NCBI GenBank assembly: GCA_002269645.1
Contig: NIVC01002421.1
Location: 1-64,000 of the forward strand
DNA: 64,000 nt
Reading direction: 5' to 3'
Source of the DNA: Macrostomum lignano
Taxonomy: Eukaryota
The notes beneath the pieces were generated by a model. That model was not told the DNA's origin, did no database searches, and worked only from the letters and a program-made list of their open reading frames with translations. Of the stretch, positions 455 to 20,375 are shown one piece after another. How positions within the stretch are numbered: position 1 is the first letter of the stretch; the number at the start of each line of letters is the position of its first letter. The position numbers and the translations under genes are program-made.

Positions 455-744
455 GCCCCAGAGAAAGACGCATATAGTACGCACATCATAATAGACACCA
501 ATTAATACTCTTCCCGTTAAAACGTCGTCAGCAACGTCTTTTACGATACCTATCAACATGCGAATTACCATGCCTCCCATTTCATTGCGCTGTACTCCCA
601 TACTTATTAAGCGACATGCGGATCTAACTATGTTATTAAAGCACAGTGAATTGACAAATTGGCAGGGCGATATGTACGATGAAGATATAATTATAATTAT
701 ATCTTATAAGGCGATATAATTATAATGCTCCTAAAATTGCAGTT

Positions 745-1329: not shown

Positions 1330-1668
1330 CTAACACAACAAATCGGACGCTCACAATTAAAACCTTAGTATACTAGGAACATAGCTCCATAAAATTTAAA
1401 TGCTTACACTTACGTCTTCTTCTAACATACCATCCTACTACCTGCCAACCCCGAACAATATTCGAGACCAACACAGGCCGGCCCAAGAAGAGAATGCGCT
1501 ATTTTTCACCAATTAAAACTTAGTGACTACAAGCCAATTAAAACGCGATACGTATCCATATATATATACACGCGAAATTCACTTACGATTTATGCCTTCA
1601 CACATCTTTCTGTAATTCCTAAGAGTTCCATCTTCCATTGTTTTGCTTTTGCCTCTATTTATATCATC

Positions 1669-2268
1669 ATGTCTGAGTGCCCTATTTGCCTTGATCCGGC
1701 CCACGCCATGGTCTCCACCTGCGCCTGGGGCCATATGGCCTGCCGTACCTGCGCCGCCAGGGAGGAACTCCAACATTGCTCCATATGTCGACGGGACAGA
1801 GTGTGGTGTGTCCTGTGTGGACGGCTACCGCAGGTGAAGTTGTGCTCCGACGGCCATTGGGTCTGCAACAGCTGCTTGCGCAGTCTGGCTTGTCGGGCTA
1901 TCGGCTACTGTGTTCAATTTGGTTGGAATTTTCTTTCGACCACCACTGCCATTACGGCCACGATCCCGTATGAGCCTGCTCTATGGCTCGATGCTGACTC
2001 TATCCCGCGACTGACTACGCCGGAATTGGCGCGCGCCATCAAGTCATGGCCCGTTACGATGGCCCAAGCCAGGGCCCGGGACGATATGCTCAGGATCGGC
2101 CGGGACGTACTACTAGATGCGACAATTACGACCGAGATGGAGGCCTACCTCGCCATCCTGAACCGCACCGAGTCCACTGCATATACTCCACTGCAGATCA
2201 TGTTTGGGCCTCTGGCGGCGTTGATAATACGGCTGAAATCCGTTCTTGACGACATTTTCATTGCCTAA
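1669..2268 (+). CDS. Tandem double RING-finger protein, paralog 2
   Basis: CPIC..CAWGHMACRTC..CSIC then CVLC..CSDGHWVCNSC; shares C-terminal motifs (IKxWP, TTExExYL) with 745-1329. Confidence 0.75.
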   Translation: MSECPICLDPAHAMVSTCAWGHMACRTCAAREELQHCSICRRDRVWCVLCGRLPQVKLCSDGHWVCNSCLRSLACRAIGYCVQFGWNFLSTTTAITATIPYEPALWLDADSIPRLTTPELARAIKSWPVTMAQARARDDMLRIGRDVLLDATITTEMEAYLAILNRTESTAYTPLQIMFGPLAALIIRLKSVLDDIFIA

Positions 2269-3075
2269 CTACCGCACTCGTTATGTACTGCTTCTATTCT
2301 GCGACGTATTGACTTCACTAATTATTGCTCTTGCTTATTCTTGTTTAGTGCCTCTTGCGTGTTCTGTACACTACCTTACTTAACCTCTACTATATCTACG
2401 ACTATATACTCATCACCACTTTTCATTGTTCTGTACGTTCTATACTTACTTGCCACTGCAATAAATGAAAACCTCTGTCCGCTTTTACTTAATTTCGATT
2501 GAAATTCGAGACGAATTTTTCGTAAAAAAGGGAGATACTGTAGAGATCTCCAAACACAGTAGCCTACTAAAAGTAGTAACATAAAATTATGAACACAAAT
2601 TTAAAAATAGCTATGTGTCATACTCTATTTTTAGTAATACCAGTCATATCACGCAAACAGCGAGTGACTATGCTATTGTTCGAAAAAACCGGTTCTCGAC
2701 ATCTATTTTTAGAACTTCCAAATATGGTAAATGTTAACCTGAATGTAACCCAAGTCTCACCCTTTTCTATTCAAAAACCCCACCTGTCAAATAATAAAAT
2801 TCCTTTCGTGAACTCATAAAAAACGGTTTTGAGGCTTCCCAGGCTTAAGTGTCTGAAAGTGGAAGTTTTCGGGTGACTGATCACCACCCGATCAAACTCT
2901 TCACCCGCACGTTCCGCCGCACCCGCTACCCCATGTACGCAGAGGATAGAACCAATGTACAGTAGTCCCACTAAGGAATACGATGGGCAGCTGAGAACAC
3001 ACGCCAAACCCCAGACGCGATAATCAATGAATACTCTCGCTTATTTCTTTCCAGCACACACTCCGCACAAAGAAG

Positions 3076-3390
3076 ATGGCCGCCTACACACCAGAAAAGG
3101 CTTACACCCGGCGACCTGGCCAGGCTTTTGTGGACGGAGACCTCCACCTTCGGAAGTGCGTCAAGAAAGACGCACAAACACAGGTCGCCGAGTACGATAT
3201 CGATGGCGGCCACTCCATGGCTAAACAAACGGCCGCCGACTATAACGACTGGGGGGTGATCCTGGCCCCAAGAAAGACTCCATGAGACGGGGGCCCGTAT
3301 GAGGCCGCCGTCACCATTAGGCCACGGCCCTCACCGCAGGGCTACCGCCTATATCTATGGAAGATAGGCGACCGCCCGGTCAAGGACTAA
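3076..3390 (+). pseudogene. DAQTQ-family cargo protein, copy with one nonsense codon (TGG>TGA at 3283-3285)
   Basis: Reading through the stop gives DGGPYEAAVTIRPRPSPQGYRLYLW, matching the intact copy 17364-17693 (WEGGPYKAPVTIRPWPTPQGYRQYLW). Confidence 0.75.
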
Positions 3391-3537
3391 TATCAATAGT
3401 ACTAAATGGCCTCGGCGCAACATATACAAAACAAACTATACGCTTGAAACTTTTGCTCGAAGAATACCCATCCTCTGACACAACCACTTATCTAGCACAT
3501 CCTCTTCTACCCCTAATGCAACGTTCACTACCTTTTG

Positions 3538-3670
3538 CAGATTTCTAACCTCTTATATTTGATGAAATACGCACCGGCAACGCGATTTAGTCCCAGCATA
3601 AAGAACCCAAATCCTTGTTCGCACAAGGATTTCGAAAAAAAGGGGGAATTATATTAGAGTTAGAAATCTG
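3538..3670. other. Conserved stem-loop module D (long outer stem plus inner 10-bp hairpin)
   Basis: CAGATTTCTAAC..TATA / TATA..GTTAGAAATCTG outer arms; inner AAATCCTTGT-TCGC-ACAAGGATTT. Confidence 0.7.
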
Positions 3671-4684
3671 AAGTTTTACCTTAAGTTAGTAGATAGATAG
3701 AAATTTATGAAAAGTCCAGGCGCAGCAAAGGGCGAGGCAGAAGAGCACAATGGTACCCATAGATAGCTATTAGAAGGGCAAACAGAAGCAGCAATAAGGC
3801 AATAAATCAAGACAAATAAGAAGGACCGATTCTAATTAAGCCCCTCCCATTCCAGTGAGCAGCAACACCCCGCCGCAGGAACAACGGCACTCAAACCGGC
3901 CGGAGAAGTAAATTAAGTAGCAGCCCGACTTAGGGAACAACGCAGCACGCGGCACGCAGCAGATTTCTGGCGCACCCAGAGGGAGGAAAATGTGCGGCCC
4001 ACCCACGGACTCCAATCCAACCTGAAGAGGCCGAAGAAGGCGAGATCAACCCGAAGTAGTTGACAACCGAGGGAGAGAGAGAGGGCTGTTTAATCATCCA
4101 TGGACAGAGTTAAGAGACGGAAAATTAAGCTCGTTTTATATAACCTTTCTATCCTAGATTTTATCCAACTCAACACATAGATTTGCGAAACCCCGAATAA
4201 TCTCCAACCTTCACACTTAGCAACCTACTAGAACTAACTAAATCCATGTACAACTAGGGGACTGAGTCCCAGATTGTTATTGCTTAAAACTCCCCGCCGT
4301 TGCTAACCTCGCGAGACACATCACCGGCGGCGGGGGGGGCCAAAAATGCTAATTGGTATAAATAGACGCCCATCTCAAACTGGACCGGCGCTTCGTTTTT
4401 CTTGCGCATTTTCGATCTCGAATTGCTCCCTTTGAATTAGTCTCTGGATTATCCAGTTGGCACAAATCTAAGTCTTTAATACAGTTATTTGTCTTAATTG
4501 TCGCGCAGAGCAAATCCTAGAAAGAGTCAAACTCAGCTTAGATACTAGGAGATCCCGTCAGTTTATACGGTTTTCTCCGACGGCCTGATTGAAGAAGTTA
4601 GAGCTATACAAACCTTAGACCGCAAGACATCTATCTTACGAAAGTGAGAACAAAAACTCAAAGGCCCCAGAGACAGCGCGTATA

Positions 4685-4995
4685 CCCTTTGCAGATTTTT
4701 AACTGCTTATATTTGATGAAATAGGAACTGGCACCACGCCTTAGTCACCGCCTAGAGGAACCAAATTCTTGTTAGCACAAGGATTTCAAAAAAGGGGCAA
4801 TCATATGAGTTAGAAATCTGAACTTTTGCCCTAAGTTAGAAGATAGCTATAAATTTATGAAATGCCCAGGCGCATTGAAGGGCGAGGCAGAAAAGAACAA
4901 TGGAACCCCTAGATAGCTATTAGAAGGGCAGACAGAAGCAGCTTTAAGATAAGTGATCAACTGTCAAGTCACTTTAAATATCCGAATCTAATAAA
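4685..4995 (+). mobile_element. Fragment of a further Y unit (stem-loop D 4692-4820 plus downstream block), fused to Gypsy RT by a deletion
   Basis: Homology to 3531-3800 and 9612-9756; breaks at CCGAATCTAATAAA into RT sequence. Confidence 0.65.
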
Positions 4996-7083
4996 AAGAA
5001 GTGGCGAAACACGAGCTACACATCAAGCCCAACATAGAGATAAAGCTTTACAAAAGATATCCCATCCCATACCAATTAATGGGAGAACTACAGAAAACCA
5101 TCGATAGGATGGAAGCCCAAGGGATAATAAAGAAAGCGGCAACTCCATACATCTCGCCAATCTTACTGGTAAAAAAGAAAGCAGAATCGCCCAATGCTAA
5201 CCCTGTTTACCGTCTCTGCGTCGACTTTAGGGACCTCATTATATTCTAGTGCCTGAAAGACAGTCCATGCCCAGAATCCCCGACCTGCTAGCTAAGCTCA
5301 AAGGCTCCATGTACTTCACCACGTTGGATATGGCCCAAGCATTCTTCCAAGTAGCCCTAGAGGAGGAAAGCCAGAAATACTGCGGCATCTAAACCCCGGA
5401 TGGACAAACCTATGTGTTCACTAGAGCACCCATGGGGTTACAATCTTCGCCTGCGGCGCTATCAAGGGCAGTCAGCATAATCTTACAGGGCATACATTGA
5501 GTCTCCACCTACGTGGACGACCTATTAGTGTTTAATGAGACCTTTGAAGACCACCTCAACACGATAAAAACACGCTATCAGCACTCACTAAGCACGGAAT
5601 GAAACTCAGTTGCTGAAATGCAAATTTGCCAAACCGACACAATCAAGCATCCAATACCATGCCTCCAGGCACTGAAGGACGCACAGAAGGAGGATCCATT
5701 CTGCCAGTACATCAGAGCTATGTGGAACGAGCAACCTGGCGGAGAAGATTTGGACTCAAAATAGAAGCGCCATATTGAACGGCACCTAACAGATCATGCT
5801 GAAATTCTGGGCATTATCCACAGAACGGCAGAAAAAACGCAGCAGATAGTACTGCCATTTAAATATCGCGACACAATTTGCTACTCACTGCACGCCCTAC
5901 CCTTGGCCGCACATCTAGATGTCAAGAAGACCTTGGAGAGGATCCGGCGACATTACTTCTGGATCTCCATGGTCCGAGATATACAAGCATTCTGCGACAA
6001 CTGTATGGACTGTGCCAAAAGCAAGTCCGGCAGGATGCATCAAGGCCTCATTCAGATGTCGGAGATACCACTAAAACCGATGGACAAACTGTCAGTGGAT
6101 CTGGTCGGCCCTATGACACCGGCGAGGATAAGGAACGAGTCGGTAACACATTTTTAACCGTTTCGTGCTGCTTCTCCAAGTTTGCCTTAGCGTTCCCAAT
6201 ACCGGACTTGAAAGCCGAAACCACGGCCGAAACACTCTTCCAAGTGTTCTGTACCTTCGGGATACCCGTAGAACTCTCAACGGATAACATCACCAATTTC
6301 ACGGCGACACTACTCACAGATGCCCTAAATATTCTAGGGATACAGCACATTCTAACGTCACCTTACAACCCTCGAGCAAACCATGTGGAACGCCTTCACT
6401 CCACTCTCCACAATATGCTACGACATTACACGGCGGAGAACCCTCACAATTGGCACCAATACCTACAAGCTATAATCCACGCTTAAAACACAGCCAAACA
6501 AGCGTCCTCTAAATACTCACCATTCGAGATAGTGTTCGCCCGGAAGCCACTAATGCCCACAGAATTAACAACACAACTGCAATTCGTACGATACGCAGAC
6601 GAACCCGCATACGCGGAACGAATGCAAGAGGCTATAACCCTAGCCAGAGAAATAGCCCGTCACCACCTACAAGAAGCTCAAAAGAAAAACACAACAAGGG
6701 CAAACAACAGAAGAGTTCCGACCACGATAACAGTAGGAAGCAGGATAATGCTCCAAAATCCAATGAGACAAGCAAAACATCAATCTAAATTTTCTGGACC
6801 ATACGAGGTGGTTAAATGTAACAGTGCCACTTCGGTGCTGATAAAAAAGACAGATGAACCACCGCAAACAGCCTTCCAGGTACATGTGGACAGGCTGAAA
6901 CCGGTGGCCTCACCAGAAGCGCAAGTCTTCCTCCCCGACCTCCGGCCGTGTGATCCCAACCGCCTGCAAAGACAGCAGAAACAGAAGTTCTCGATGGATG
7001 TCGGCATCCAAGTAGAAGATGGAGCGCCGGCGGACACGGCCAGGAAGAAATACAACCTAAGGAGCAAGACCCACCTTCCGTGA
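4996..7083 (+). pseudogene. Decayed Ty3/Gypsy pol: RT (RNase H deleted) plus integrase
   Basis: SPILLVKKK..YRLCVDFRDL, TLDMAQAFFQV, YVDD (~5510), HHCC zinc finger, DLVGP / STDN / VERLH DDE core, GPY motif, VHVDRLKP, C-terminal YNLR; several stops and frameshifts. Confidence 0.93.
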
Positions 7084-7259
7084 CAATTGATGTCATGGGA
7101 AGGGGGGGGGAGAGTACAAAGACCAAAAACATTCATTTTATACTCGTATATGTACTCAGTTGGTATGCGCTGCACTTAACAGTAGAAACACTCACTATTA
7201 ATTACCAATACATACCTGATTAAAATAATTAAAGCACTGACTTATATCACACACAACAG

Positions 7260-7398
7260 ATGTACGACGCTCAGCTTGACTATTTGGACGATGTCTATAT
7301 CGGCGAGGAGACTTCCCCGAATGGAGACGATCGTCAGACCGCTGTTTCAAGACCCGGAGATTCAAGATGAATGGTCGTCAAAGCAGTGTCATCAGTAG
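7260..7398 (+). pseudogene. Internally deleted remnant of the X cargo ORF P (HNH-like)
   Basis: MYDAQLDYLDDVYIGEETSP start and SSKQCH end match the two ends of 13553-14561. Confidence 0.7.
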
Positions 7399-7768
7399 GT
7401 AAGAAAACACCCATAAAACCCAACCAAATAATCCAAATTTAACAATTAAGCGGACAAATTCACGCTTCACCTGACAATTTATTTTTGATTATTCGTACAC
7501 AGTAGTAGTATAACGTAGTAGTGCTATCAAAGATGGACAGAAACACCAGAAAGTAGCACGCATATGGCTTGTAGTATAAAGTAACATTAGTTCGCACGCA
7601 TGATTCTGCGCATAATAAATCATAGCTTAGACCTGTAGCATACGGCAGTTTTAAAAAAGAAAAGTTAAATAGAACAAATACTAAAAATGCTTATATATTT
7701 CCACAAAAAAAATGTTTTCGTCAATCCTTTCGCATAATAGTTACTTAATTCACTGGCAGGTTCCCATA

Positions 7769-8008
7769 TTAAGCAGATAGGGGCCGATAGCGGTACCGGC
7801 AGCAAAACGCCACAATTAAAACGCAGACAACGAGCAGGAGAAATCCGCCTCCGCCTACTCCGCCCAGCACACCTCGGAGCGCTCGGAGCCCAGAATCCGT
7901 CGCTAGAGCTTGATGGGATAGCTCCCTCACGCGCTCCTCCACGGCCAATAAGCGCCGATCCATCCTTGAGAGTAAGCTAGACAATTGCTCCACAGCATGC
8001 TGCGACAT
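7769..8008 (-). CDS. 79-aa coiled-coil + C-terminal transmembrane microprotein (X cargo)
   Basis: ATG at 8008; heptad-like N-terminus, hydrophobic FLLLVVCVLIVAF, then CC-RYRYR; intact paralog at 14952-15191 with mostly synonymous changes. Confidence 0.8.
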   Translation of the reverse strand: MSQHAVEQLSSLLSRMDRRLLAVEERVRELSHQALATDSGLRALRGVLGGVGGGGFLLLVVCVLIVAFCCRYRYRPLSA

Positions 8009-8296
8009 AGTGCCAACGTCAATCCCGTAAAAGCGTAGACAGTATAAGCAGTCAAATTCTATATCCAACACTCGCCAGCGCCGGGGACTCCCTCTCAATT
8101 AAAACTTATATCAGTCCCAGTGGAGGGAACCCCCCTAATAAAAAATCGATCAGTCCGCGGACCCCAAAACCCCCCAGTAGGGGCAAGAGCGGTAAACAAC
8201 CTCAGCGAAGGCCCGTAAAACCCAACCGCGTACATTGTAGCTAAGGATGTACATTGCCAAATAAGAACCAATACAGTTAAAAATCATTCCAGCACA

Positions 8297-8620
8297 ATGG
8301 CTGACCACGGGTGGCGTGCCTATACAGCACTCGATGCTTATCAGAGGCGACCAGGCACCCGTTTTACTGACGTCAACATACATGGGCGGCCCTGTTACAA
8401 GGCAGACGCCCAAACCCAGGCGACTCCGGAAATTATTGATGGGGGACGCTTAGTGGCCGCTGGAACATCGGACCCCGAAGGGGGAGTCATTAGACTCCCC
8501 AGAAGAGAATGGCCTGGGGGCGACTACGTCCCCGCCCCAGACTACGAATGGCCAACGCTCCAGACGCACCGCATGTTCGTCTGGCGCAACCCCAACAAAG
8601 CACCCCCAAATAACAACTGA
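8297..8620 (+). CDS. DAQTQ-family cargo protein (107 aa), unknown function
   Basis: Intact ORF; four paralogs share YxRRPGxxFxDxxxHxxxCxKxDxQTQxxxxxxDGG; synonymous-biased divergence versus 15476-15805. Confidence 0.8.
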   Translation: MADHGWRAYTALDAYQRRPGTRFTDVNIHGRPCYKADAQTQATPEIIDGGRLVAAGTSDPEGGVIRLPRREWPGGDYVPAPDYEWPTLQTHRMFVWRNPNKAPPNNN

Positions 8621-8679
8621 TCGTGCTAACTTAAATTCTAAATAACCTACATTAAATCAAGATATTACGTGACAAATAT

Positions 8680-8797
8680 TAATTTCTAACCCTATATCGT
8701 TCATATTCTTGCGCTATTTCATTTCAGATTCAGGAGATTAATCCTCGTTGCACAAGGATTTCAAAAAAAGGGGGAATAATATAGGGATTAGAAATTA
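8680..8797. other. Stem-loop module D, X-family version
   Basis: TAATTTCTAACCCTATAT / ATATAGGGATTAGAAATTA outer arms; inner AATCCTCGT-TGC-ACAAGGATT. Confidence 0.7.
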
Positions 8798-9300
8798 TGA
8801 AAGTTGGGACAAATAAGAGTTCGCTAAAGGGCAAAGTAAGAAGCAAAAAAAAGCAAGGGGCGAAAGTTCAATTTAAAGATAAGACACCTAAGTGAGAGAA
8901 ATTAAAGAACGGCAAGAAAGTGAAACAAGCTATAGATAAGAAACTAACTCTGACTTTCCCCCAAGATTTCAGACTAAAACCAGATGATATCAAATCGGCC
9001 GAGGTACCAGGCTGAGCCAGTCGGCGCGGTGCCAGGAGAAGCAATACGACACAAAGCCCGACTGGCGGGCGAGATAAAGCAATGGTCAACAGGCCAAGGT
9101 CAGCGGTGACGAACGACCCCAGGGAATAAGAGGACGACTCACCGAGGGACGCACGAGGGGTCTGACGTACGAATCGACTCGAACGATGAACCCTGAACTG
9201 ACCTTTAACCATCGCCTGATGCGACCAATTAACCGATAGCAGATTATCTCTCTCGCCCCGTAGCAACGCGCTAATCTAATGTTGCTGCGTCTGTTTTGGA

Positions 9301-9360
9301 CACCCCGCCGTTGCTAATCAGCGGCGGGGTATGACGTGTATCAAATAATCTATAAAATAG
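9301..9360 (+). promoter_or_regulatory. Putative Pol II core promoter of X: inverted GC boxes, CRE-like TGACGT, TATA
   Basis: ACCCCGCCG-TTGCTAATCAG-CGGCGGGGT-ATGACGTG..TATAAAATAG; repeated at ~16530-16590 and ~16975-17035. Confidence 0.6.
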
Positions 9361-9611
9361 ACACGGCCTTGGCCCCGAAATGGGCAACGGAGAAAAGAGT
9401 CAGAGTTAAGACTGGAAGTCCTGTGCACTTCACAAAACCTTGAGTTTACTTAATCTTCAGCATTTTTGCCGTAGGCGCGAGTAGTAAGCAGCCTCTAGCG
9501 ATCTCTAGTTGTAAGCCCTCTTAGGCTTCAAGGACAGCGAAAGCAATAGAACAAAACCGCTAGACGACCAAGGAGAGAAGCATAACCGAAGCCCGAGAGA
9601 GGAGTCTTACA

Positions 9612-10596
9612 GAAATTTATGAAAAGCCCAGGCGCAGTGAAGGGCGAGGCAGAAGAGTACAATGGAACCCCTAGATAGCTATTAGAAAAGCAAACAGAAG
9701 CAGCTTTACTATAATTAATCAACTGTCAAGTCAATGTGAATAGCCGAATCTAATAAAGCCTCTTTCAATTCCAGTTAGTAGCGTCACCCCGCCGCAGGCA
9801 CAATGGCGACTAAACCGGCCGGGAAAAGCAAACTGAGCAGCGGCCTGACTTAGAGAACAACGCGGCACGCGGCATCTTCTGGCGCACCCTGAGGGAGAAA
9901 ACGTGAGGCCCACCTAGAGACTCCTACCCAACCCGAAGCTGCCCAAGAAGGCGAGATCAACCCCAAGCTGCCTGACAACCGAGAGAAATAGAGGACTGTT
10001 TAATCATTCATGGACAGAGTGTAGAGACGGAAAACTATGCACTTTTTCTATAATCTTTCTATCCCAAATTTTATCCAACTCAACACAGATTTGCGAAAGC
10101 CCGAATAATCTCTAACCTTCACACTTAGCAACCTATTAGAACTAGCTAAATTCATGTACAATTGGGGGACTGAGTCCCAGTTTGTTATTTCTCAAAACCC
10201 CCCGCCGTTGCTAACAACGCGAAGACACCCCACCGGCGGCGGGGGAGGCTAAAAATGCTAATTGGTATAAATAGACGCTCCTCTCAAACTGGAGCGGCGC
10301 TTCGGTTTTCCTGCGCAGTTTTTCGATCTTGAATTGCTCCATTTGAATTAGTTTCTGGATTATCCAGTTGACAGAAATCCGAGTCTCAAATCGATTATTT
10401 GCCTTAACTGTGACATAGAGCAAATCTTAGAGAGACTCCAACTCAGCTTAGATACTAGGAGATCCCGTCAGTTTATACGGTCTCCTCTGACGGCCTGATA
10501 GGAGAGACTAAGAGCTGTAAGAACCTTAGACCGCTAGACATCTATCTTAAGAAAGTGAGAACACGAACTCAAAGGCCCCAGAGAAAGACGCGTATA
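9612..10596 (+). mobile_element. Y-family unit, right part (TATA at 10266), left side interrupted by X1
   Basis: Begins mid-block GAAATTTATGAAAAG (cf. 3702, 4853) and ends CGCGTATA. Confidence 0.65.
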
Positions 10597-10965
10597 CTCG
10601 GGCTTGCTACACTTATTTGCTTGCCTCGATTCTTATTACGCAGCTGTACATCGGATTGAGTTTCTTTGGAGAGGTTAGTAGATGAAAAATGGTCTTTTCT
10701 TTCGTTCTTTGTGAATTTCAATGTGGGTAGAATAGTTCCATATTCTACAGATGGTTCGGTACCTTACCCATTGATTCGTATTCGTAATGAAAAAAACGGC
10801 TCTTGTTCTTGTCTTGCCTTATCTTGTCTTGCTACAGGCACTTGTTCCCCAGTGTCTAGAAGCGGGAATTTGAGAGTGATTGATCACCAGTCTTAATCTC
10901 TTCAGTAGTTGTTATTAACTGTGACCGTATAAATAGTGACCCTGTTATATTTCAACATAACATTT

Positions 10966-11529
10966 GTCTACGAGTTTTTCTATTCAAGGATTCAATTCCA
11001 TCGGTCGCTTGCTTCTGCCCGCGTGCTTGGTGGAGATACGGATAGTTTGATCCTGGCATTGGTTATGGCCAACCCGGAGACGAGTCCTCAGGAGACATTG
11101 TTTAAAGACTTGGTGGAGTGCGGTTTGTTAGATACTAGTAATTATCCACCTTCTCATCCACTTTATACAACAAAGTATAAAGGGAAGTTAATGGCCTGGA
11201 AAGATGAAGTTTGCGGTTGTACGCCGTTGGAGTTTGCATTTCTACGCCCGAAAAACTATTCAATGGTGTATGCAAAGGAAAGCCTCTGTCAGATTGTGCG
11301 TTGCAAGGGCGTGTCGAAGTCAATTGTAAGAGGTATGAAGCACAATGTATTTTTGGGTGCGTTGAAGGATCGAGTTTTGGGGCATGTAACGATGCGGACG
11401 ATTACTTCGCGACGACAGAAGATTTATATTCTTGAGCAGCGCAAGCAGGCGCTTAGCTTTTTCGACACGAAGCGAGCCTGGCTCGATCCCTACTCATCCC
11501 TCCCATTTGGTCATTGGCGGTTGACTTGA
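10966..11529 (+). pseudogene. C-terminal fragment of Maverick/Polinton (adintovirus-like) protein-primed DNA polymerase B
   Basis: YEFFY, GDTDSL (motif C), DTSNYPPSHPLY, KDE, EFAFLRPKNYS, KGV, LSFFDTKR, LPFGH; homology appears to stop upstream of ~10966. Confidence 0.85.
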
Positions 11530-11798
11530 CTTGTTCTCTCTGTCTCTATTTTCTGTCTGTTTATGCTTTTTCTGCTCACAATATATGCGCGCAATTATCG
11601 AATGTATATACAAGAATCTGCCTTTCTTTCTTTCTCTTCGTATTTTTTCGTTTTTCTAGGCCAATGATAGCAGTGCAGGGGATTAGTACTAGGCTTAGTT
11701 TTTTTGATTGGGACGAGGATTACGAGGGTAGTACCAGACTTATTTTAGAGGACGACGATCCTGCTAAGCATAAGATGAACTATGATCCCGCAGCCACG

Positions 11799-12281
11799 AT
11801 GAGCTCCGACGCTTGAACGACGGTCCCGCTGCGCATAGTGCTCACGGATGCCGGGGCAGTAATGCCTCGGCGAGCTACGGCCGGGTCGGTGGGCTATGAC
11901 CTAGCCACGTGCGAAGACCGCACTGTGGAGGCCTTTGACACAGCCATCATTTGCACCGGCCTCCGGGTGATGCTGCCGCTAGGCACCTATAGTCAGATAG
12001 CGAGCCGGTCCAGTTGGGCCAACCCAGGCCTCAATGTGCAGGGTGGCGTGGTTGACCCGGACTATACCGGGGAACTCCGCGTGATCCTGCACAACACGTC
12101 AGATGAGAAAGTTCATCTACTGTGTGCCACCAGCGTGGTTCAACTGATTCTGGAGCGCTGCGTCAGGCCCCCGGTAGAAGTCGGCCGAGCTCGCAAGGGC
12201 CAGCTGCCGGGGGTTTGGCACCGACAACCGGAGCCGGTGGCGGTTCGCGAGACGGGCGGCATGGGCAGCACTAACATCTGA
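11799..12281 (+). pseudogene. dut: Trimeric dUTPase with an in-frame TGA at 11814-11816
   Basis: All five motifs recognisable (VGYDL, SRSS, GVVDPDYTGEL, QLI, RETGGMGSTN); ATG 11799 is in frame with the downstream ORF. Confidence 0.9.
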
Positions 12282-12381
12282 TGCTGCTCGCGCCCGGAGC
12301 CCGTCGGTCGGTGGTGGGAATTGGTGGTGGTTTTTAATACAATATACTGCTCGTGGATTTAACCGCTGTGTGTATAAGCAA

Positions 12382-12725
12382 ATGCAGTTGGTTCTTTTAG
12401 TACAATTAAGTGGGGTGGGAACACAAGGCCAACAGAAGAAGAAGCGAGTGCGTTTACCATCTTTCAGGGGAGCTTCATTTGCCGGGGGTTACCAATTCTG
12501 CGGCCCGGGACACGATTGAGAGAACGTTTGGCGAGGGGCGATACTGGGAAGAATCGGCTCGATAAATTGTGTCTCTTACATGACCTGGCATACGAGAAGC
12601 ACTCGGACGTGGCAGAGCGTAAAAGGCCGATCAACAACTCGAAGCAAGAGCTCGAGAGATTGCTACGGATCCTACAACTAAGTGGGGGGGACGTTTGGCC
12701 GCGAAACTGGTGTCCCGTGTTTTCT
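12382..12725 (+). pseudogene. Parvovirus-type phospholipase A2 domain protein (Maverick/adintovirus PLA2-like), two frameshifts
   Basis: GYQFCGPG / TRLRERLARGDTGKNRLDKLCLLHDLAYEK / ADQQLEARAREIATD across three frames; shifts fall in short homopolymer runs. Confidence 0.8.
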
Positions 12726-13552
12726 AGCATTTTTCTAGCGAGCATGATTAGTGGTGGTGGCGCTGAGAATCTGTTTAAGCGCTGTTATAATCGTTTGCGT
12801 TCTTTCGCGATGAATTATCTGCGTATTAGATTGCGGTAATTTGCTTACTCGTTTTTAATGCGTATGGACTTGCGGCGAATTCAGTCAAATATACTTTGCA
12901 GAGATAAATGGCCAAGGCTAAGGAAGAATTGGACTTTGCATTCAATATTTCTTTTAGGAGAGAGCTAGTGTTGGTTAGTGTGTCGTATAAGATAACTACA
13001 CTATACATACACTATACTTACATCTATAACTACATTTATAACTATTTCATTTCAGACCCAGGAGAATAATCCTCGTTGCACAAGGATTTCAAAAAGGGAA
13101 TAATATAGGGATTAGAAATTAGGACAAGCCTGAACAAAATAAAAGGTTCGCTAAAGGGCAAAGTAAGAAGCTAAAACCAGTGGGCGAAAGTTCAATTTAG
13201 AGATAAGACACTTAAGTGAGAAATTAGAAGAACGGCAAGAAAGCAAAAAAAATCATAGATATGATATGAACTTAATTGTCACTTTCCCCCAAAATTTCAG
13301 ACCAAACGAGATTTCAAAATCGGCCGAGGTACCAGGCAGAGTCAGTCGGCGCAGTGCCAGGAGAATCGAGACGACATGTCACAGAAAGCGGGGGGAGAGT
13401 AGAAAGACTAAAAAACATTCATTTTCATATATATGTACTCAGTTGGTATGCGCTGCACTTTACAATATAAAATATTTACTGTTAAGTACGGCTCGTATCT
13501 ATACATACCCGATTAAAATAACTTAAGCACAGACTCATATCACACACAACAG

Positions 13553-14561
13553 ATGTACGACGCTCAGCTCGACCACTTGGATGATGTCTATATCGGCGAG
13601 GAGACTTCCCCCCGAATGGAGACGATCGTCAGACCGCTGTTTTAAGAACCGGAGATTCAAGATGAATGGTCCAAAAATAGTCGTTTGCAACAAAAATATC
13701 AGCGGTTGCGGCGCGAATGGAAATCAAGAGGGCCACACATCCCCTACGAGATGGGTGACAACACGAAGTGGATGGCTCGATCCGATGACACAACGTACGT
13801 GATACGATTTCACCAAGCTAGTACAACAGACAGTAATCTCCAGCCGGCCAGGTCGGTACAATGATGTAAAATTGTTTGACATCCACCAGGAAATGCTAGA
13901 AATTCCGAGAACGACCAATATGGTGACACATCTGACATGCCAGCGTATCTGCAACAACCCGAGGGACCTCCGATGGTTAAGCGCCGATTAAAACATACTA
14001 GAGCGAAACGCGACTCTCATTTTTGATTACACAAACCAAGATGCCTTCACAGGTCACCATTTCATAGTAATGACAAGGTGGCTCCGCTCACTCATAACGC
14101 ACCCCTGGGGACCTGCAGAAAACCACATGGAACGCCACGTCACTCTGAGAACCTACTTGATAAGCACGCTGCACTATCACGGGATCCATATTTCCCGACA
14201 AGAAATAAGAAAACCGGTAACGCTAGCTTACTCACCGGCCACGTTCCAGTGGCCACAACTGAAAACAGCACTGCTAGCCACCGCACACCCAACCCGGAAA
14301 CAGACGGGTAGTAGAGGCGAAGTTCCCGTAAGGACCGAAAGGGGAGGGTACAGATGGTGAGATTTGACACGATGGTCGAGCGGTTACTCGTGTTCGTGGA
14401 CCAATCGTATTGTCGTACTATCGCACCAAAGTGCTCCCCACAACCCAACACCGGACGAGCTAGCCCTGTGTTTAGGGTTGGTTCAAAAGGTGAAGGGAAA
14501 AATAGGTCTAACGCACAATAGAGAAATTAACAGGTATGATTCGTCAAAGCAGTGTCATTAG
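13553..14561 (+). pseudogene. Decayed ~335-codon cargo ORF P with HNH/His-Me-finger-like motif
   Basis: One frameshift and three stops; HQEMLEIP..VTHLTCQRICNNPRDLRWLSAD*N resembles HxxCxxxxCxNPxHLx7N; the first stop is CAA in the 7260 copy. Confidence 0.5.
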
Positions 14562-14951
14562 TAGGTAAGAAAACACCCATAAAATCCAACAAGAATAATT
14601 TCATACTTAACATTAGCGGACAAACCCATGCTTCAACTAACGATTTATTTATGCTTACAAACGTAGTACGCGTAGCAGCGCCAAAAAAACATCGATTAGA
14701 AATAAAATAAAATGCGTCATACACATAGCCTATAGTAGGTAGCAATACCGTCGTTGAATGATTACGCATGCCCACGCGCTCTTGTGCATAATAATTCTTA
14801 GCTGCAGACCCTTAACATGCTAAAGTATTTTACGGTTACATAAAACAATACAAAACTACCTATATACCGTTATACTAAAACAAAGCAGTTTGTGTCAATC
14901 ATTTTCGCAGAATACAGCAGTCACCTAATAACTTCCCAACGGGTGCCATCG

Positions 14952-15191
14952 TTAAGCCGATAGGGGACGATAGCGATACTTGCAGCAGAACACCGCAATT
15001 AGAACACATAAGATGAGCAGGAGAAATCCACCGCCGCTAACGCCGCCCAGCACGCCTCGCAGCGCCCGTAGCCCAGAGTCAGTAGCCAGAGCCTGATGGG
15101 ATAGCCCTTCCACGCGCTTCTCCAAGACCGATAGTCGCCGTTCCATCTCCGAAAGTAATTTAGACAGTTGTTCAATAGCATGCTGCGACAT
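14952..15191 (-). CDS. 79-aa coiled-coil + TM microprotein, copy 2
   Basis: Intact, same length as 7769-8008. Confidence 0.8.
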   Translation of the reverse strand: MSQHAIEQLSKLLSEMERRLSVLEKRVEGLSHQALATDSGLRALRGVLGGVSGGGFLLLILCVLIAVFCCKYRYRPLSA

Positions 15192-15475
15192 AGTGCCAAG
15201 CCAAAAAAGTTGCAGACAGAATGGAACGAGCTAATCCAAGATAGTTGACTCTCGCCAGCGCCGGGGATACTTTCACAGTAGAACTTATACTAGGCCTAGA
15301 GACGGCCACCTTAATAAAATCGATCGCCCCGCGGACCCCAAACCCCCCCCCCAGTAGGGGTAAGAGCGGTAAATAACCTCAGCGAAGGCCCATAAACCCA
15401 CCCGCGTACATTGAGCTAGCTAAGGATGTACACTGCCAAATAAGAACTAACACAGACAAAAATCATTCCAGCGCA

Positions 15476-15805
15476 ATGGCTGACCGCGAGTGGCGTCCCT
15501 ATACAGCACTCGATGCCTATCAGAGGCGACCGGGCACCCGTTTTAGGGACGTTAATATACATGGGCAGCCCTGCATAAAAGCAGATGAGCAAACGCAAGT
15601 TACACCGGACGACCTCGATGGCGGACGGTCTGTGGCCTCCGGAACCTCGGACCCTGAAGGAGGAGTCATCCGACTCCCCAGAAGGGAATGGCCAGGGGGC
15701 GACTACGTTTCCACCCCTGACAACTCATGGCCAACACTTCAAACTCACCGCCTGTTTGTCTGGCGTAAACCCAACTGGGCGCCCCCGGATGAGGAAAATG
15801 ACTAA
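15476..15805 (+). CDS. DAQTQ-family cargo protein (109 aa)
   Basis: Intact paralog of 8297-8620. Confidence 0.8.
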   Translation: MADREWRPYTALDAYQRRPGTRFRDVNIHGQPCIKADEQTQVTPDDLDGGRSVASGTSDPEGGVIRLPRREWPGGDYVSTPDNSWPTLQTHRLFVWRKPNWAPPDEEND

Positions 15806-15907
15806 ATGCGAGGCTGCAACTGCTAATTAACTAATTGACACAATTCACATCTCACTATCAATTATTACGTTTAATAATTAATTAATCATTTAATTAATGG
15901 CTGCACT

Positions 15908-16023
15908 TAATTTCTAACCATATATCGTTAAAATTCTTACGCCATTTCATTCCAGATTCAGGAGATTAATCCTCGTTGCACAAGGATTTCAAAAAAAGGG
16001 GGAATAATATAGGGATTAGAAAT
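15908..16023. other. Stem-loop module D, X-family version
   Basis: Homologous to 8680-8797. Confidence 0.65.
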
Positions 16024-17363
16024 CAGAATAATCGGGACAAAATAAAGGTTCACTAAAGGACAAAATAAGAAGCTAAAAGCAGGGGGGCGAAAGTTCAATT
16101 TAAAGATAAGACACCTAAGTGAGATAAATTAAAGAACGTCAAGAAAGCGAAATAAATCATAGATATGATAAGAATTTAATTGTAACTTTCCCCCAAGATT
16201 TTAGACCAAACCCGATGACATCAAGTCGGCCGAGGTACCAGGCAGAGCCAGTCGGCGCGGTGCCAGGAGAATCGATACGACATGATACCCCGACTGGCGG
16301 GCGAGATAGAGCAATGGTCAACAGGCCAAGTCAGCGGTGGCGTACGGCCAGGGAGCAAGAGGACGATTCACCGAGGGACGCACGAGGGGTCTGACGTGCG
16401 AATCGACTCGAATAATGAACTCTGAACTGACCTTTAACCATCGCCTGATGTGACAAACTAATAGATATCAAATTATCTCTCTCGCCCCGTAGCAACGCGC
16501 CAATCTAATGTTGCTGCGTCTGTTTTGGCACCCCGCCGTTGCTAATCAGCGGCGGGTATGACGTGTACCTAAAATTCTATAAAATAGACACGGCCTCGGC
16601 CCCGAAATGGGCACTCCGGGAAGATTTAAGCTTCAGAACTGGAAGTCTTGTGCACTTCGCCAATAAATCTAAAAGGACTCATATTTGTTCTTTGTGCTAA
16701 AGGCACGAGTCATAGTCAGCCAAGTAGCGATCTCCTTTGTAAGCTCTCTTAGGCTTCGAGGACAGTGGAAGCAATAGAACAAAACCACTAGACGACCAAG
16801 AAGGAGAGAAGCATAGCCGAAGACCTAAGAGAAGTCTTACACGACATGATACCCCGACTGGCGGGCGAGATAGAGCAATTGTCAACAGGCCAGGGTCAGC
16901 GGTGACAGCTATCAAATTATCTCTCTCGCCTCGTAGCAACGCACTAATCTAATGTTGCTGCATCTGCTTTGGCACCCCGCTGTTGCTAATCAGCGGCGGG
17001 GGATGACGTGTACCTAAAATTCTATAAAAATAGACACGGCCTCGGCCCCGAAATGAGCAACCTGAGAAGAATCCAAGGGACAGCAAGAGTTCCAGTGCAA
17101 TTCACGGAAATCCCAAGATTACTGTTCGTTATTTGTGCTACAGGCACGAGTCTTGGCCAACAAATTGCGATCTCTGTTGTAAGATCTTTTAGGCTCAAGA
17201 TCGAGTGAAAAGCTATATTGATCAAGAACAGGAATTAAAAGGTCAGACTTAGTCAAAAATAGTTAGAGCCTAAGAGAATTCTTACACTACTAAGGGATAT
17301 TTTGGGCAGAGAAAAACACGAGCCAGGTCGCCGAGCTTACGAGCTTAATTTTAGCGCATACAC

Positions 17364-17693
17364 ATGGCCGCTTACACCAGCGATAAAGTCTACGCCCGGC
17401 GACCTGGCCAAGCTTTTGTGGACGTGGATATCCATGTCTACAGGTGCGTCAAAAAAGACGCACAAACGCAGGTCACCGAGTGTGACATAGATGGTGGCCA
17501 TTCAGTGTCCACCCAAACCGCCGAGTCGGACAACGATTGGGGACCCGTGTTGCCTCTCACGAAGATCCCATGGGAGGGAGGCCCCTACAAGGCCCCCGTG
17601 ACCATCCGGCCGTGGCCCACGCCGCAGGGCTACCGCCAATATTTATGGGCCAAAGGTGCCCGCCCAGAGACCGAGGAAGGCGGCGATAATTAA
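17364..17693 (+). CDS. DAQTQ-family cargo protein (109 aa), Y type
   Basis: Intact ORF, paralog of 3076-3390. Confidence 0.8.
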   Translation: MAAYTSDKVYARRPGQAFVDVDIHVYRCVKKDAQTQVTECDIDGGHSVSTQTAESDNDWGPVLPLTKIPWEGGPYKAPVTIRPWPTPQGYRQYLWAKGARPETEEGGDN

Positions 17694-17814
17694 AGCGGCC
17701 CCTAGCTATAACTATGAATTATCTCTTTTTAACTAACTATTTTCCATTTTATCTATCTATATACCTCAGCCAGCATATCTTCCCTACCTCAATATAACGC
17801 TTAATTACCTTTTA

Positions 17815-17944
17815 CAGATTTCTAAGTCTTATATTTGATGACATACGCAACCGCAATGCGATTTTAGTCCAAGCATAGAGGACCCAAATCCTTGTTAGCA
17901 CAAGGATTTGAAAAAGGGGCAATCGTATAAGAGTTAGAAATCTG
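17815..17944. other. Stem-loop module D, Y-family version
   Basis: 18/19 complementary outer arms (17815-17833 / 17926-17944); perfect 10-bp inner stem 17886-17909. Confidence 0.75.
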
Positions 17945-20375
17945 AAGTTTATCTTAAGTTAGAAGAAGATAGTTAAGTCCCTTTCCATTCCAGTCAGTAG
18001 GGACAACCCGCCGCAGGAACAATGGCGATTAAACTGGCTGGGAGAAGCGGCCCAGCTTAAAGAACAACGCGGCACGCGGCATCTTCTGGCGCACCCTGAG
18101 GGAGAAAACGTGAGGCCCACCTACAGACTCCTATCCAACCTGAAGTGGCCCAAGAAGGCGAGATCAACCCCAAGCTGCCTGACAACCGAGAGAAACAGAG
18201 GACTGTTTAATCTTCAATGGACGGAGTTAAGAGACGGAAAATTAAGCTCTTTTCCTGTTATTTGTCTATCCCAAATTTTGTCCAATGCAACACATAGATT
18301 TCCAAAAAACCCGAATAATCTCTAACCTTCACACTTAGCAACCTACTAGAACTAACTCGATTCATGTACAACTAGGGGACTGAGTCCCAGATTTTTATTG
18401 CTTAAAACCCCCCGCCGTTGCTAACCACGCACGCGAAGACACCTCACCGGCGGCGGGAGACGCAAAAATGCTAATTGGTATAAAATAGACGCCCATCTCA
18501 AACTGGAGCGGCGCTTCGTTTTTCCTGCGCAGTTTCCGATCTTAAATTGCTCCATTTGAATTGGTCTCTGGACTGTTCCAGTTGGCACAAACCAAAGCCT
18601 TAAATCAATCATTTGTCTTAATTGTTGCGCAGAGCAAATACCAGAGAGAGTTACCCTCAGTCTAGATACTAGGAGATCCCGTCAGTTTATACGGTTCTTC
18701 TCTGACGGCTTGATAGGAGAGATTAAGAGCTGCACGAACCTTAGACCGCTAGACACCTATCTTAGAAAGTGAGAACATCAACTCAAAGGCCCCAGAGAAA
18801 AACGCGTATAAAGATTTTTCGGTCCCGAGCGGCGCTACCTCGGATCTTGGAAAAGACCTGTCTTCGAACAGCTGAACTTGTGTTTCACAGTTTCTTTGTG
18901 TTATCAGACGAACACGCGCGCCAACCGCTATCTCCGTTGTAATTTGCGAGTTAAGCTAGAACCGATAAGGAGGGTCTTAAAATGGGGGCAATTATAGAGG
19001 GCTCGGAAATTCACTAGCATAGGAAGTTCTTTCGAGACGCGTTTAAGCTGGACGAAGCAAAGAATTATCAGTATAGGCAGAGGAAAGACAAATAAGACAG
19101 ATAAGATGGTAGAAGGCCGAATGCGGGCAAACAACAGTGACCCATAGCAGCATATGACAAATTCACAGCAGCCCCCAAACCCAAATCTGGCAATCAATCC
19201 CGAAGGGCGTGGGAACCGAAGAGTGGACGCGCGATCCGATGTATGCGGAAATGCAGTGGAAAGACTCAAAAACTGACCTCCACCTCCCCCGCTCGATCGC
19301 TCGAACTCAACCAACGTAACCCGCAAGTTTAGCGTCAAAACCGTAAAAAGTGGTTTGTTTCGGCCCTAAGGCGCTTAACTTGTTTTACTCAGAGCTTGGC
19401 CTCGTAAAAATAACCGTTTTACTATTAAACACTATTCTGTGATTTATACGGTCATCGTATGTAGCAATAACAACTGCCTTTAGTTTAAGGCTAGTAATTT
19501 TTATACTTGGTTAATTCAAAATATATTACTCTACCAGAACAAAACGAATGGTCCTAATGCAAAGTTATTATCCATAAATCTATGAAATTAAAGACATTAA
19601 AATCAATCCACACAAATTGAAATGATGTTTTTTAATTGATAGCGCTAGTTGCTGTCAATGCCGAAGCATCAACGATAACCAGCTGTGCGTTTAAACTCAC
19701 CAAACAGAGCCGTAGAATTTAAAGAATTCCAGCCCGTCTAGCTCGTAAAAGCCATGGCGAGGGAGAGACGACAAGACTGTCGAGCAGCGCGTGTGCTGAT
19801 ATATTATAGAAAGGCCGCTTGTGCATGCACAGGGGTTGCTGGACACCCGGGCATGTGTGGGCAATCCAGATTGGCCGAGAGGGAGAGGGAGACAAGGGGA
19901 GAGAGAGAAGAGAGAGACTCAGTTTTCTGTACAGGCCCAAGGCTTCCGTTCTGGGTTTCAAGACCTTGTCAAGGCCGAAGAGCCTCGTTTCCGCGGCCCC
20001 TCTTCCGAGTGGGGGGGGGCTTGGGGTTGGTGTTGCGTCTGTTGGCTGATGGCTGAGTTCGTAAATGTGCACATGACTCCACCCTACGTTTTTCAATTCG
20101 TCTATTAGGGCAGAAAAGCTAGGACGGGTAAAAGATAGGACGTGCTTGAAATTGGTCTTCTGCTTTTCGTGGCGGACCCTGATAAGTGAAAATTCATACT
20201 TTTTTCGTGTGCTCAAGGTTCTAAGGAATTAGATTCGGCTTCGGGATAAGTCTGCTTCGAGCTAGAATGTTCATTTATCTGTCCAACCAAAACCAAACAA
20301 CATTTTTACTCCTGTATCTGTATCGGATGGCAATAGGATTACAGATGCTCTGCTCTGCCTTCGACTTCGATCATG

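Follow-up and report, generated by a model that had tools for sequence, protein, structure and literature searches.

Inverted repeats that enclose the polypurine tract (PPT) have already been described in Sireviruses, other copia elements and HIV, and how RNase H chooses the PPT is not fully explained. According to the part of the Sirevirus study consulted (Bousios et al. 2010, PMC2829016), the terminal PPT and also the attachment site are enclosed by an inverted repeat in Sireviruses and in roughly half of the classic Ty1/copia elements; its arms, of ~19–28 bp, lie in the linker and in the 3' LTR. PPTs further upstream lack the repeat, and it was proposed to guide RNase H. PPT structure is conserved in HIV and SIV, as described in the excerpt consulted of PMC4439019, and a 2013 survey, again in the excerpt consulted, asked that PPT-containing hairpins be sought systematically outside Sireviruses and HIV (PMC3601003). 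Here we describe a short module, D, in which an inverted repeat encloses the PPT across the linker/LTR junction in all five complete copies, with a geometry that differs from those described.

Results

Module D is the junction of the internal region and the 3' LTR

The window analysed is a 64-kb (64,000-nucleotide) stretch of Macrostomum lignano contig NIVC01002421.1, for which an initial annotation had reported six copies of a conserved stem-loop of ~120–130 nt. All six were confirmed, five of them complete: a 12-nt core has six exact matches in the 64 kb (3621, 4775, 8750, 13078, 15978 and 17898), and a covariance model built on the five complete copies found the same six and no seventh at E<0.05. 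The single extra core match, with one mismatch, is the partner arm of copy Y1 (chance expectation with at most one mismatch, 0.46).

3538–3670, + strand: D copy Y1; arm 3538–3558, inner hairpin 3609–3632, PPT 3635–3646, inferred LTR start 3652
4692–4822, + strand: D copy Y2; arm 4692–4713, hairpin 4763–4786, PPT 4788–4797, inferred LTR start 4804
8680–8798, + strand: D copy X1; arm 8680–8702, hairpin 8740–8760, PPT 8763–8774, LTR start 8780
13042–13124, + strand: D copy X3, 5' side cut; hairpin 13068–13088, PPT 13091–13098 (shortened), LTR start 13104
15907–16026, + strand: D copy X2, stem decayed; arm 15907–15929, hairpin 15968–15988, PPT 15991–16002, LTR start 16008
17815–17944, + strand: D copy Y3, best stem; arm 17815–17833, hairpin 17885–17910, PPT 17911–17919, inferred LTR start 17926

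D joins the internal region to the 3' LTR in two related Ty3/gypsy LTR-retrotransposon families, X and Y. Its A-run/G-run is the PPT, and the LTR's first ~19 nt make up the 3' arm of D. The order within D is almost certainly internal arm, 9–11 bp hairpin, PPT, a spacer of 5–6 nt and the ~19 nt with which the 3' LTR begins; this makes D a plus-strand priming junction whose internal arm is complementary to that LTR start. An A/G run of 8–12 nt lies 5–6 nt before the LTR start in 6/6 copies; as a PPT we accepted an A/G run of <20 nt just upstream of U3. The internal arm is an inverted copy of the LTR start located 60–77 nt upstream of the PPT, and its distance to the A-run is similar in both families (60–61 nt and 74–77 nt).

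3652–4684, + strand: Y-family LTR, 1033 nt, TATA-like box at 4357; left end inferred by alignment to X
8780–9611, + strand: X-family LTR, 832 nt, TATA-like box at 9351; right end inferred from three coinciding homology breaks
16008–16841, + strand: X-family LTR, 834 nt, TATA-like box at 16578
17926–18810, + strand: Y-family LTR, 885 nt, internal deletion near 17965

The left LTR end is marked by a 1770-nt contig (run X5; 1491 bases unmatched) and an 841-nt contig (run X6; 562 bases unmatched), both of which begin to fit exactly at 13104, five bases past the G-run. This support, from two of four runs, represents one X-type locus that is probably identical in both, and the left ends of the Y family were placed by alignment to X. 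At the right end, contigs with mixed flanks leave at 18810 (six in run X6, four in run X14), while one contig of run X1 goes past 18810 into a Y-family tRNA-Glu primer site, 13 nt of which are identical to the published antisense primer for the 3' end of tRNA-Glu(CUC). No primer site was seen for the X family or within the 64-kb window, and ARAGORN found no tRNA. Summed contig depth in run X6 rises across D from 336–835 to 2200–15600, a weak hint only. The inferred LTR ends form imperfect inverted repeats (4–6 of 8), with termini TA..TA in Y and TA..CA in X instead of the canonical TG..CA, which is usual but not universal, as the Zam clade differs.

4995–7083, + strand: broken Ty3/gypsy pol with an RT piece and integrase, preceding the X1 accessory region

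This pol, 71–76% identical to M. lignano P0007, was seen upstream of X1 only, on the same strand, and may not belong to the X family because the array is rearranged. The window holds 3' LTRs only, and neither gag nor a complete element was seen in it. A 2.5-kb LTR beginning at the purine run after pol (7115) was also considered and is disfavoured by the 13104 boundary and by low depth over 13384–15900. Among viral contigs no relatives of P0007 were found, and a pattern scan of such contigs returned 65 loci, which are chance matches since 0/65 had the partner arm or the 3' arm. Five X/Y-family motifs were absent from the supplements of PMC12801592 (six family consensuses seen), in which line breaks can hide matches.

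Several breakpoints fall at D. Copy Y2 is joined 7 nt past the right end (4684) of the preceding Y LTR, and a join resembling it (18798 back to 17876, intervening letters not known) occurs in contigs of two of the four runs. In a contig of another copy, also from two of four runs, likeness resumes at 15910, the first base of the X2 arm core.

The outer stem and its variation

The outer stems comprise 18–23 Watson-Crick pairs in the five complete copies and score 32–43, compared with maxima of 32–36 when the same 3' arms were set against 300 random windows; the scores of X2 (32) and Y2 (36) do no more than reach or slightly exceed that range, and copy X3 at 13042, which has no internal arm, scores 18. 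The arm sequences quoted in the annotation are exact for Y3 (17815) and X1 (8680), but Y1, Y2 and X2 carry mismatches. Folding z-scores on the + strand were −3.4 (Y1), −2.4 (Y2), −7.0 (Y3), −3.4 (X1), −0.4 (X2) and +0.9 (X3), X2 folding no better than shuffles. Within ~440 nt of context at 20 °C, the pairing probability of the outer core was 0.0 in Y2 and 0.39 in X2, and for the inner stem it was 0.01 (X1) and 0.38 (X2). An ungapped inverted-repeat scan placed Y3 alone clearly above shuffles because the other stems carry bulges.

The inner AATCCT..AGGATT hairpin is present with the loops originally given, but with a fixed C-A mismatch in 3/3 X copies and a C>T change in Y2. Compensatory changes between the families, as the annotation had claimed, do exist but are few: 2/21 pairs on a MAFFT alignment, or, by our reading of an alignment anchored on invariant cores, 4/6 of the X1/Y3 differences in the first 19 LTR bases. 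With 21/500 shuffles reaching the observed score and 15/21 pairs never varying, the covariation between these two lineages is suggestive, not significant. Wobble versus mismatch changes pick no strand, Y2 favouring the + strand and the X inner stem the − strand. An Rfam search gave no match at the gathering score in the 64 kb and none on D up to E=5 in 1–19000. A kissing interaction between the D loop and its own LTR was rejected, the 6–7 nt matches being at non-homologous sites and at chance level.

Conservation of D and the adjacent ORF

The hairpin and purine run (52 nt) are 73–81% identical between families X and Y, while segments just outside show 43–63% identity and divergence at synonymous sites of the neighbouring ORF is almost saturated (dS 1.5–2.5, or undefined). 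This contrast supports a selected cis-element within D, as judged from divergence, and to that extent the functional RNA element originally proposed stands. The outer arm is also kept while neighbouring synonymous sites approach saturation. The adjacent ORF is of the DAQTQ type and precedes D in four of the six copies, as the annotation had it, with D lying 59–147 nt past the ORF end; two of the four depart from the gene as described.

3076–3390, + strand: DAQTQ ORF, Y1 copy, with an in-frame stop at 3283–3285
8297–8620, + strand: DAQTQ ORF, X1 copy, 107 aa, with a splice-acceptor-like site just before the ATG
15476–15805, + strand: DAQTQ-type ORF, X2 copy, 109 aa, reading DEQTQ
17364–17693, + strand: DAQTQ ORF, Y3 copy, 109 aa

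By its substitution pattern the ORF is under purifying selection (dN/dS 0.18–0.19 within families), and an acceptor-like site precedes the ATG in 4/4 ORFs. Its product has no Pfam match, no evident arginine-rich motif and no usable Atlas match, and its AlphaFold model (pLDDT 32) was useless. One homology search gave no homologue and another gave six matches; of the four examined, three are repeat proteins and the fourth is an M. lignano gene model, beyond which no relatives were present among the matches examined. In runs presumed to be RNA, all 30 bins have coverage, which carries no strand, end or level information. The same elements also encode a small membrane protein in antisense orientation and contain other captured genes.

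Control junctions and upstream purine runs

In 12 of 14 unrelated control Ty3/gypsy junctions a hairpin (stem score ≥14) ends 11–19 nt before the LTR start, against a background of 20%; these controls were hand-picked from 23 contigs (nine dropped) after hairpin output had been seen for some, and amount to ~11 independent junctions, contigs L077-79 and L081-82 being kin. They replaced a first automatic control set that had miscalled many junctions. In having an inner hairpin ahead of the PPT, D is an ordinary Ty3/gypsy junction; only the outer arm is special. Outer-arm scores in this comparison were 25–38 in the five complete D copies and 15–29 in the controls (0/14 reach 30), with X2 (25) and Y2 (28) inside the background range (95th percentile 26.5, maximum 36). 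Since the controls are without it, the outer arm is not needed by Ty3/gypsy elements in general. Arm scores were 12–20 at three purine runs upstream (near 2535, 7113 and 13395), and the 25 nt bordering the PPT score 13–23 against the LTR (background median 18).

2502–2535, + strand: upstream hairpin and purine run before the Y1 accessory region, no outer arm
7076–7114, + strand: upstream hairpin and purine run at the pol stop, no outer arm; second PPT-like site

Discussion

The most likely job of the outer stem at this plus-strand priming junction is probably to guide RNase H to the terminal PPT. In genomic RNA the stem would keep the terminal PPT single-stranded within a loop and would distinguish it from upstream PPT-like runs. 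Reverse transcriptase would open the stem from the LTR side, copy the PPT and then pause at the inner hairpin, 14–19 nt before the LTR start. Such a pause could help RNase H to cut near the PPT/U3 border, and the cut would set both the plus-strand primer and the left DNA end used by integrase. Pause-related RNase H cuts do occur at hairpins (PMC5399748).

It is unlikely that D contains the PPT but has kept its outer stem as an RNA export, stability or packaging element resembling a CTE or Rem-response element, in which case the product of the DAQTQ ORF immediately upstream may bind it. The position of D fits, as CTE and RmRE overlap the env/3' LTR junction in the part of PMC12789967 consulted, and the selected ORF ahead of four D copies, with its acceptor-like sites, is what a spliced accessory gene would be expected to look like. 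Set against this are the absence of an Rfam match for D, its length (120–130 nt, compared with 234 nt for the CTE in the text consulted), the lack of a Pfam match, evident arginine-rich motif or wider relatives for DAQTQ, and the best-conserved part of D being the hairpin and PPT, already accounted for by reverse transcription. The fuller version, in which a DAQTQ protein made from spliced RNA would bind D to export or package the unspliced genome as in complex retroviruses, is quite improbable. If D were a DAQTQ response element the finding would be much larger: a Rev/Rem-like system outside vertebrate retroviruses, in flatworm Ty3/gypsy families.

We are also very doubtful that function is confined to the hairpin and PPT, with fold-back template switching during reverse transcription having created and renewed the outer arm as an incidental inverted copy of the LTR start. 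Matched changes would then arise without selection on the fold, and the arm does mirror the LTR start of its own family. The breakpoints located at D or within it (4685, 13042 and, in a different copy, 15910) are what stalling of reverse transcriptase would give, control junctions have no arm, and X2 and Y2 tolerate broken pairs. Yet the arm distance is similar in both families, an 8-nt arm core is kept in 5/5 complete copies (one C>T) despite near-saturated divergence, and Y1, Y3 and X2 retain mismatches that have not been corrected.

That D controls RNA processing, by masking a splice acceptor, forming the 3' end of DAQTQ mRNA or yielding small RNAs, is highly improbable: a pyrimidine-rich CAG site resembling an acceptor marks the start of the Y arm in 3/3 Y copies, and in X copies an acceptor-like site is found inside the loop, but these lie at non-homologous places in X and Y and 0/15 of the joints listed (15 of 33) have GT..AG ends; the promoter-like TATA box is 553–705 nt downstream of D's 3' arm, so that genomic RNA should run well past D and the 3'-end formation suggested by the annotation is unlikely; and the predicted fold, a stem of 18–23 bp closing a multiloop, is not the long simple hairpin from which the precisely cut small RNAs of a microRNA precursor come, a role likewise suggested and for which we found no evidence.

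Guidance of RNase H by the outer stem can be approached in vitro, as D is short, sharply bounded and available in natural sequence variants; it exemplifies a new geometry in a Ty3/gypsy lineage of animals. Should the finding stand in a curated set, the hairpin 11–19 nt before the LTR start could also aid the annotation of LTR ends; we found no description of such a pre-LTR hairpin in the limited collection of literature searched, and the parts of PMC6486637 and PMC5408684 consulted contain nothing on D.

Among known systems, the Conserved Hairpin Site of fungal GalEa copia elements, as described in the part of PMC5445492 consulted, is likewise a conserved hairpin at an LTR/internal junction, with a presumed part in reverse transcription; it takes the place of the primer site at the 5' LTR, whereas D belongs to the 3' LTR, and a tRNA primer site is present in the Y family. 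With the MPMV CTE and MMTV RmRE (PMC12789967, part consulted) D shares a structured RNA, predicted in its case, at the internal/3' LTR junction, and with the RmRE an accessory gene within the same element, but D is shorter, has no sequence or Rfam match to them and would have an export role only by analogy. Other Ty3/gypsy elements (control contigs L066-L091 and, by eye, the Mlig-id38 consensus in supplement 5 of PMC12801592) have a short stem that ends 11–19 nt ahead of the LTR start, the PPT lying in the interval, and the controls differ from D in having no long outer arm; the M. lignano Ty3/gypsy consensuses id55 and id115 show no clear hairpin by eye.

As in the HIV-1/SIV PPT and cPPT, for which the excerpts consulted also suggest pause-linked RNase H cleavage (PMC4439019, PMC3601003), the predicted fold of D has a helix closing a region with the A-rich part of the PPT and short helices inside. 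The 3' end of the HIV G-run lies inside a SHAPE-backed helix in those excerpts, whereas the PPT of D is predicted to be unpaired. With the Sirevirus/copia repeat D shares a terminal PPT enclosed by a linker arm and a 3' LTR arm, and upstream PPT-like runs without the repeat. In the part of PMC2829016 consulted, the left arm of the Sirevirus/copia repeat borders the PPT and the right arm starts ~18–28 nt inside the LTR. In D the left arm is well upstream and a separate hairpin borders the PPT, while the right arm starts 1–6 nt before the LTR start and consists of the first bases of the LTR, in an animal Ty3/gypsy element rather than Ty1/copia.

Copies of module D and their fold

The six positions that the initial annotation gave for module D (3538, 4692, 8680, 13042, 15908 and 17815) hold up: the 12-nt core, an invariant stretch of its hairpin, occurs exactly six times, where 0.46 matches with at most one mismatch are expected, and a covariance model of D found no seventh copy. 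Five copies are complete (Y1, Y2, Y3, X1 and X2, named after the two Ty3/gypsy families) and that at 13042 is partial. The outer stem is present, with 18–23 Watson-Crick pairs in the five complete copies, and the arm sequences quoted for it are exact only in Y3 and X1. Folding is well above that of shuffled sequences for Y1 (z −3.4), Y3 (−7.0) and X1 (−3.4) and modestly so for Y2 (−2.4); X2 and the partial copy fold no better than shuffles. Once more flanking sequence is included, other folds compete with the stems of Y2, X1 and X2; wobble pairs do not tell which strand folds. An Rfam search gave no match to D.

Module D at the PPT/3′ LTR junction

Contigs from four public sequencing runs were aligned to 12900–19400. 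At 18810, six contigs in run X6 and four in run X14 diverge from the reference into mixed flanks; past this position, 13 nt in one contig of run X1 exactly match an antisense primer published for the tRNA-Glu(CUC) 3′ end (available text of bioRxiv 10.1101/2024.01.30.575011). The mixed flanks and this identity mark 18810 as an LTR right end followed by a primer-binding site. The fit of a 1770-nt contig (run X5; 1491 unaligned bases) and of an 841-nt contig (run X6; 562) starts exactly at 13104, five bases past the G-run of D; this is the LTR left end, at probably one locus. Summed depth in run X6 rises from 336–835 just upstream of D to 2200–15600 downstream, which weakly points to the excess that LTRs usually show. 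From the contig boundaries and the depth, the A-run/G-run is the PPT and the 3′ arm of D the start of U3, and D is very probably the PPT/3′ LTR junction.

With the Y left end and X right end placed by homology, the LTRs measure 832–834 nt in X and 885–1033 nt in Y. Their termini are imperfect (TA..CA or TA..TA) and TATA-like boxes lie 553–705 nt into them. A GC-rich hairpin-like motif 20–50 nt before the box (9302–9330, 16531–16557, 4292–4335 and 18411–18457) is the main stretch common to X and Y LTRs.

Hairpin and outer arm in control junctions

Two viral-collection scans provided 23 integrase-bearing contigs, of which nine were dropped and 14 served as control PPT/LTR junctions. In 12 of these 14 unrelated Ty3/gypsy junctions (L066–L091), called by a purine-run plus TG pattern rather than by paired LTRs and chosen after some hairpin output had been seen, a stem scoring at least 14 ends 11–19 nt before the inferred LTR start, versus 20% of random positions (binomial 2e-7; 2e-5 on 9 of about 11 independent junctions). 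Such a hairpin is possibly a general Ty3/gypsy feature. In D, the 12-nt core ends 14–19 nt ahead of the LTR start. By eye, the M. lignano Gmr1/Osvaldo consensus has the same hairpin/PPT layout, which is not clear in the CsRN1 and Mag consensuses (available text of PMC12801592). Outer-arm scores are 25–38 in complete D copies and 15–29 in controls, the background 95th percentile being 26.5. Hairpin and PPT are thus nothing unusual, and the outer arm is a property of the X and Y families that is clear in Y1, Y3 and X1. A further hairpin with a purine run lies upstream in each family (2502–2535, 7076–7114) and lacks the outer arm.

Conservation, proposed mechanism and alternatives

The dS of the DAQTQ ORF, which lies just upstream of D in four copies, served as a clock for the divergence of the neighbouring D. 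The ORFs considered here are:

3076–3390, DAQTQ ORF
8297–8620, DAQTQ ORF
15476–15805, DAQTQ ORF
17364–17693, DAQTQ ORF
7769–8005, minus strand, antisense 79-aa ORF of an X copy
14952–15194, minus strand, antisense 79-aa ORF of the other X copy

DAQTQ dS is 0.75 for X1/X2, 1.2 for Y1/Y3 and 1.5–2.5 or undefined between families (dN/dS within families 0.18–0.19). Over the 52 nt of hairpin and PPT, identity is 98% for X1/X2, 79% for Y1/Y3 and 73–81% between families; the segments just outside are 43–63% identical between families, the Y1 and X2 anchors being one base off.

With the position, boundaries, complementarity and conservation of D in hand, we propose that outer stem and inner hairpin together guide RNase H, a mechanism that as a whole we consider somewhat more probable than its negation. 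The outer stem would keep the terminal PPT unpaired within a loop, setting it apart from upstream purine runs, and the inner hairpin would make reverse transcriptase stall, placing the RNase H cut near the PPT/U3 border. The two active sites of reverse transcriptase/RNase H lie roughly 18 nt apart. Hairpin-induced pausing and cleavage are established for retroviral enzymes (available text of PMC5399748).

That D is instead an export or response element is unlikely; with CTE, the MPMV export element, and RmRE, the MMTV Rem-response element, it shares position only. That a flatworm retrotransposon carries a Rem-like protein together with a response element is quite doubtful. Improbable, too, is an outer arm that is a passive fold-back copy, and an RNA processing element or small RNA is very unlikely.

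Integrase recognition, as is established, can account for a conserved LTR start; the internal 8-nt core complementary to that start is kept in five of five complete copies, which integrase recognition does not explain. In the contig of another X copy, likeness resumes at 15910, the first base of this core. The compensatory changes that the initial annotation saw between families survive in part: 2 of 21 pairs are altered on both sides, and the covariation is thin, since 21 of 500 shuffles attain the observed score, which two lineages could yield without structure. The MAFFT alignment puts the inner part of the outer stem out of register; in a hand-anchored alignment, X1 and Y3 show six differences over the first 19 LTR bases, four of them compensated. 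We conclude that D is a real, selected element.

Accessory ORFs and the array at 1–18810

Purifying selection acts on the DAQTQ protein, for which no family is known. Both its QTQ stretch and a GIQV stretch close to the C-terminus of pol may resemble dynein light-chain binding motifs. Inverted repeats of 13–18 nt (17322–17408, 3106–3193) pair the Y-type DAQTQ ORF start with upstream or internal sequence. The antisense ORF (dN 0.13 versus dS 0.66) encodes a coiled coil, a glycine linker, a hydrophobic helix and a basic tail, a layout reminiscent of sORF2/FAST-like small membrane proteins (available text of bioRxiv 10.1101/2025.03.14.642691); Pfam and Atlas searches gave weak matches only.

The window is animal DNA, with satellites and host-type genes in its right part; the pol and DAQTQ proteins have their closest named relatives among Macrostomum lignano gene models. 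Region 1–18810 is a mosaic of X and Y repeats, all on one strand, with two RING-like ORFs, a broken Ty3/gypsy pol, and dUTPase and PLA2-like pieces between them. All seven LTR right ends (454, 4684, 9611, 10596, 16841, about 17286 and 18810) point in one direction, and no primer site follows any of them in this region; the array therefore contains 3′ parts of elements alone. It could have arisen by nested insertion, as a one-strand small-RNA cluster or from rearranged cDNA.

The two RING-like ORFs (745–1329 and 1669–2268) are related; flanked by a Y LTR end and the Y1 accessory region, they are possible cargo of a Y element. The stretch 10597–13041, which abuts the partial D at 13042, is DNA-virus- or Polinton-like and contains a dUTPase (E 5e-22), a PLA2-like piece (E 0.02) and a piece resembling, by eye, a family B DNA polymerase C-terminus, for which Pfam gave no match. 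A further, broken ORF (13553–14540; shortened form at 7260) begins directly behind an acceptor-like site. X1-type copies lack an 871-nt part of this ORF, the corresponding join is present in three of four runs, and a family search of two pieces found none. A tandem copy of the final ~22 nt of the first Y LTR, altered in two places, lies at 455–477. Three of some eleven array breakpoints (4685, 13042, 13377) lie at or in hairpin/PPT sites, a count that would be in keeping with stalling.

Comparison with known PPT-enclosing repeats

An inverted repeat encloses the terminal PPT in Sireviruses and in roughly half of the classic copia elements; upstream PPTs lack it, and it was proposed to guide RNase H (Bousios et al., available text of PMC2829016). 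Benachenhou et al. made the same observation for HIV and called for a wider search (available text of PMC3601003), and PPT structure is conserved in HIV/SIV (available text of PMC4439019). D would be alike in its proposed working. The left arm of the Sirevirus/copia repeat borders the PPT and its right arm lies inside the LTR; D has neither position and sits in a Ty3/gypsy rather than a Ty1/copia element, so we do not class it with that repeat. The GalEa hairpin, unlike D, lies at the other LTR junction. Our literature search, with most subscription journals outside its reach, found no such outer arm described in Ty3/gypsy elements. We regard D as a variation on known PPT-enclosing repeats.
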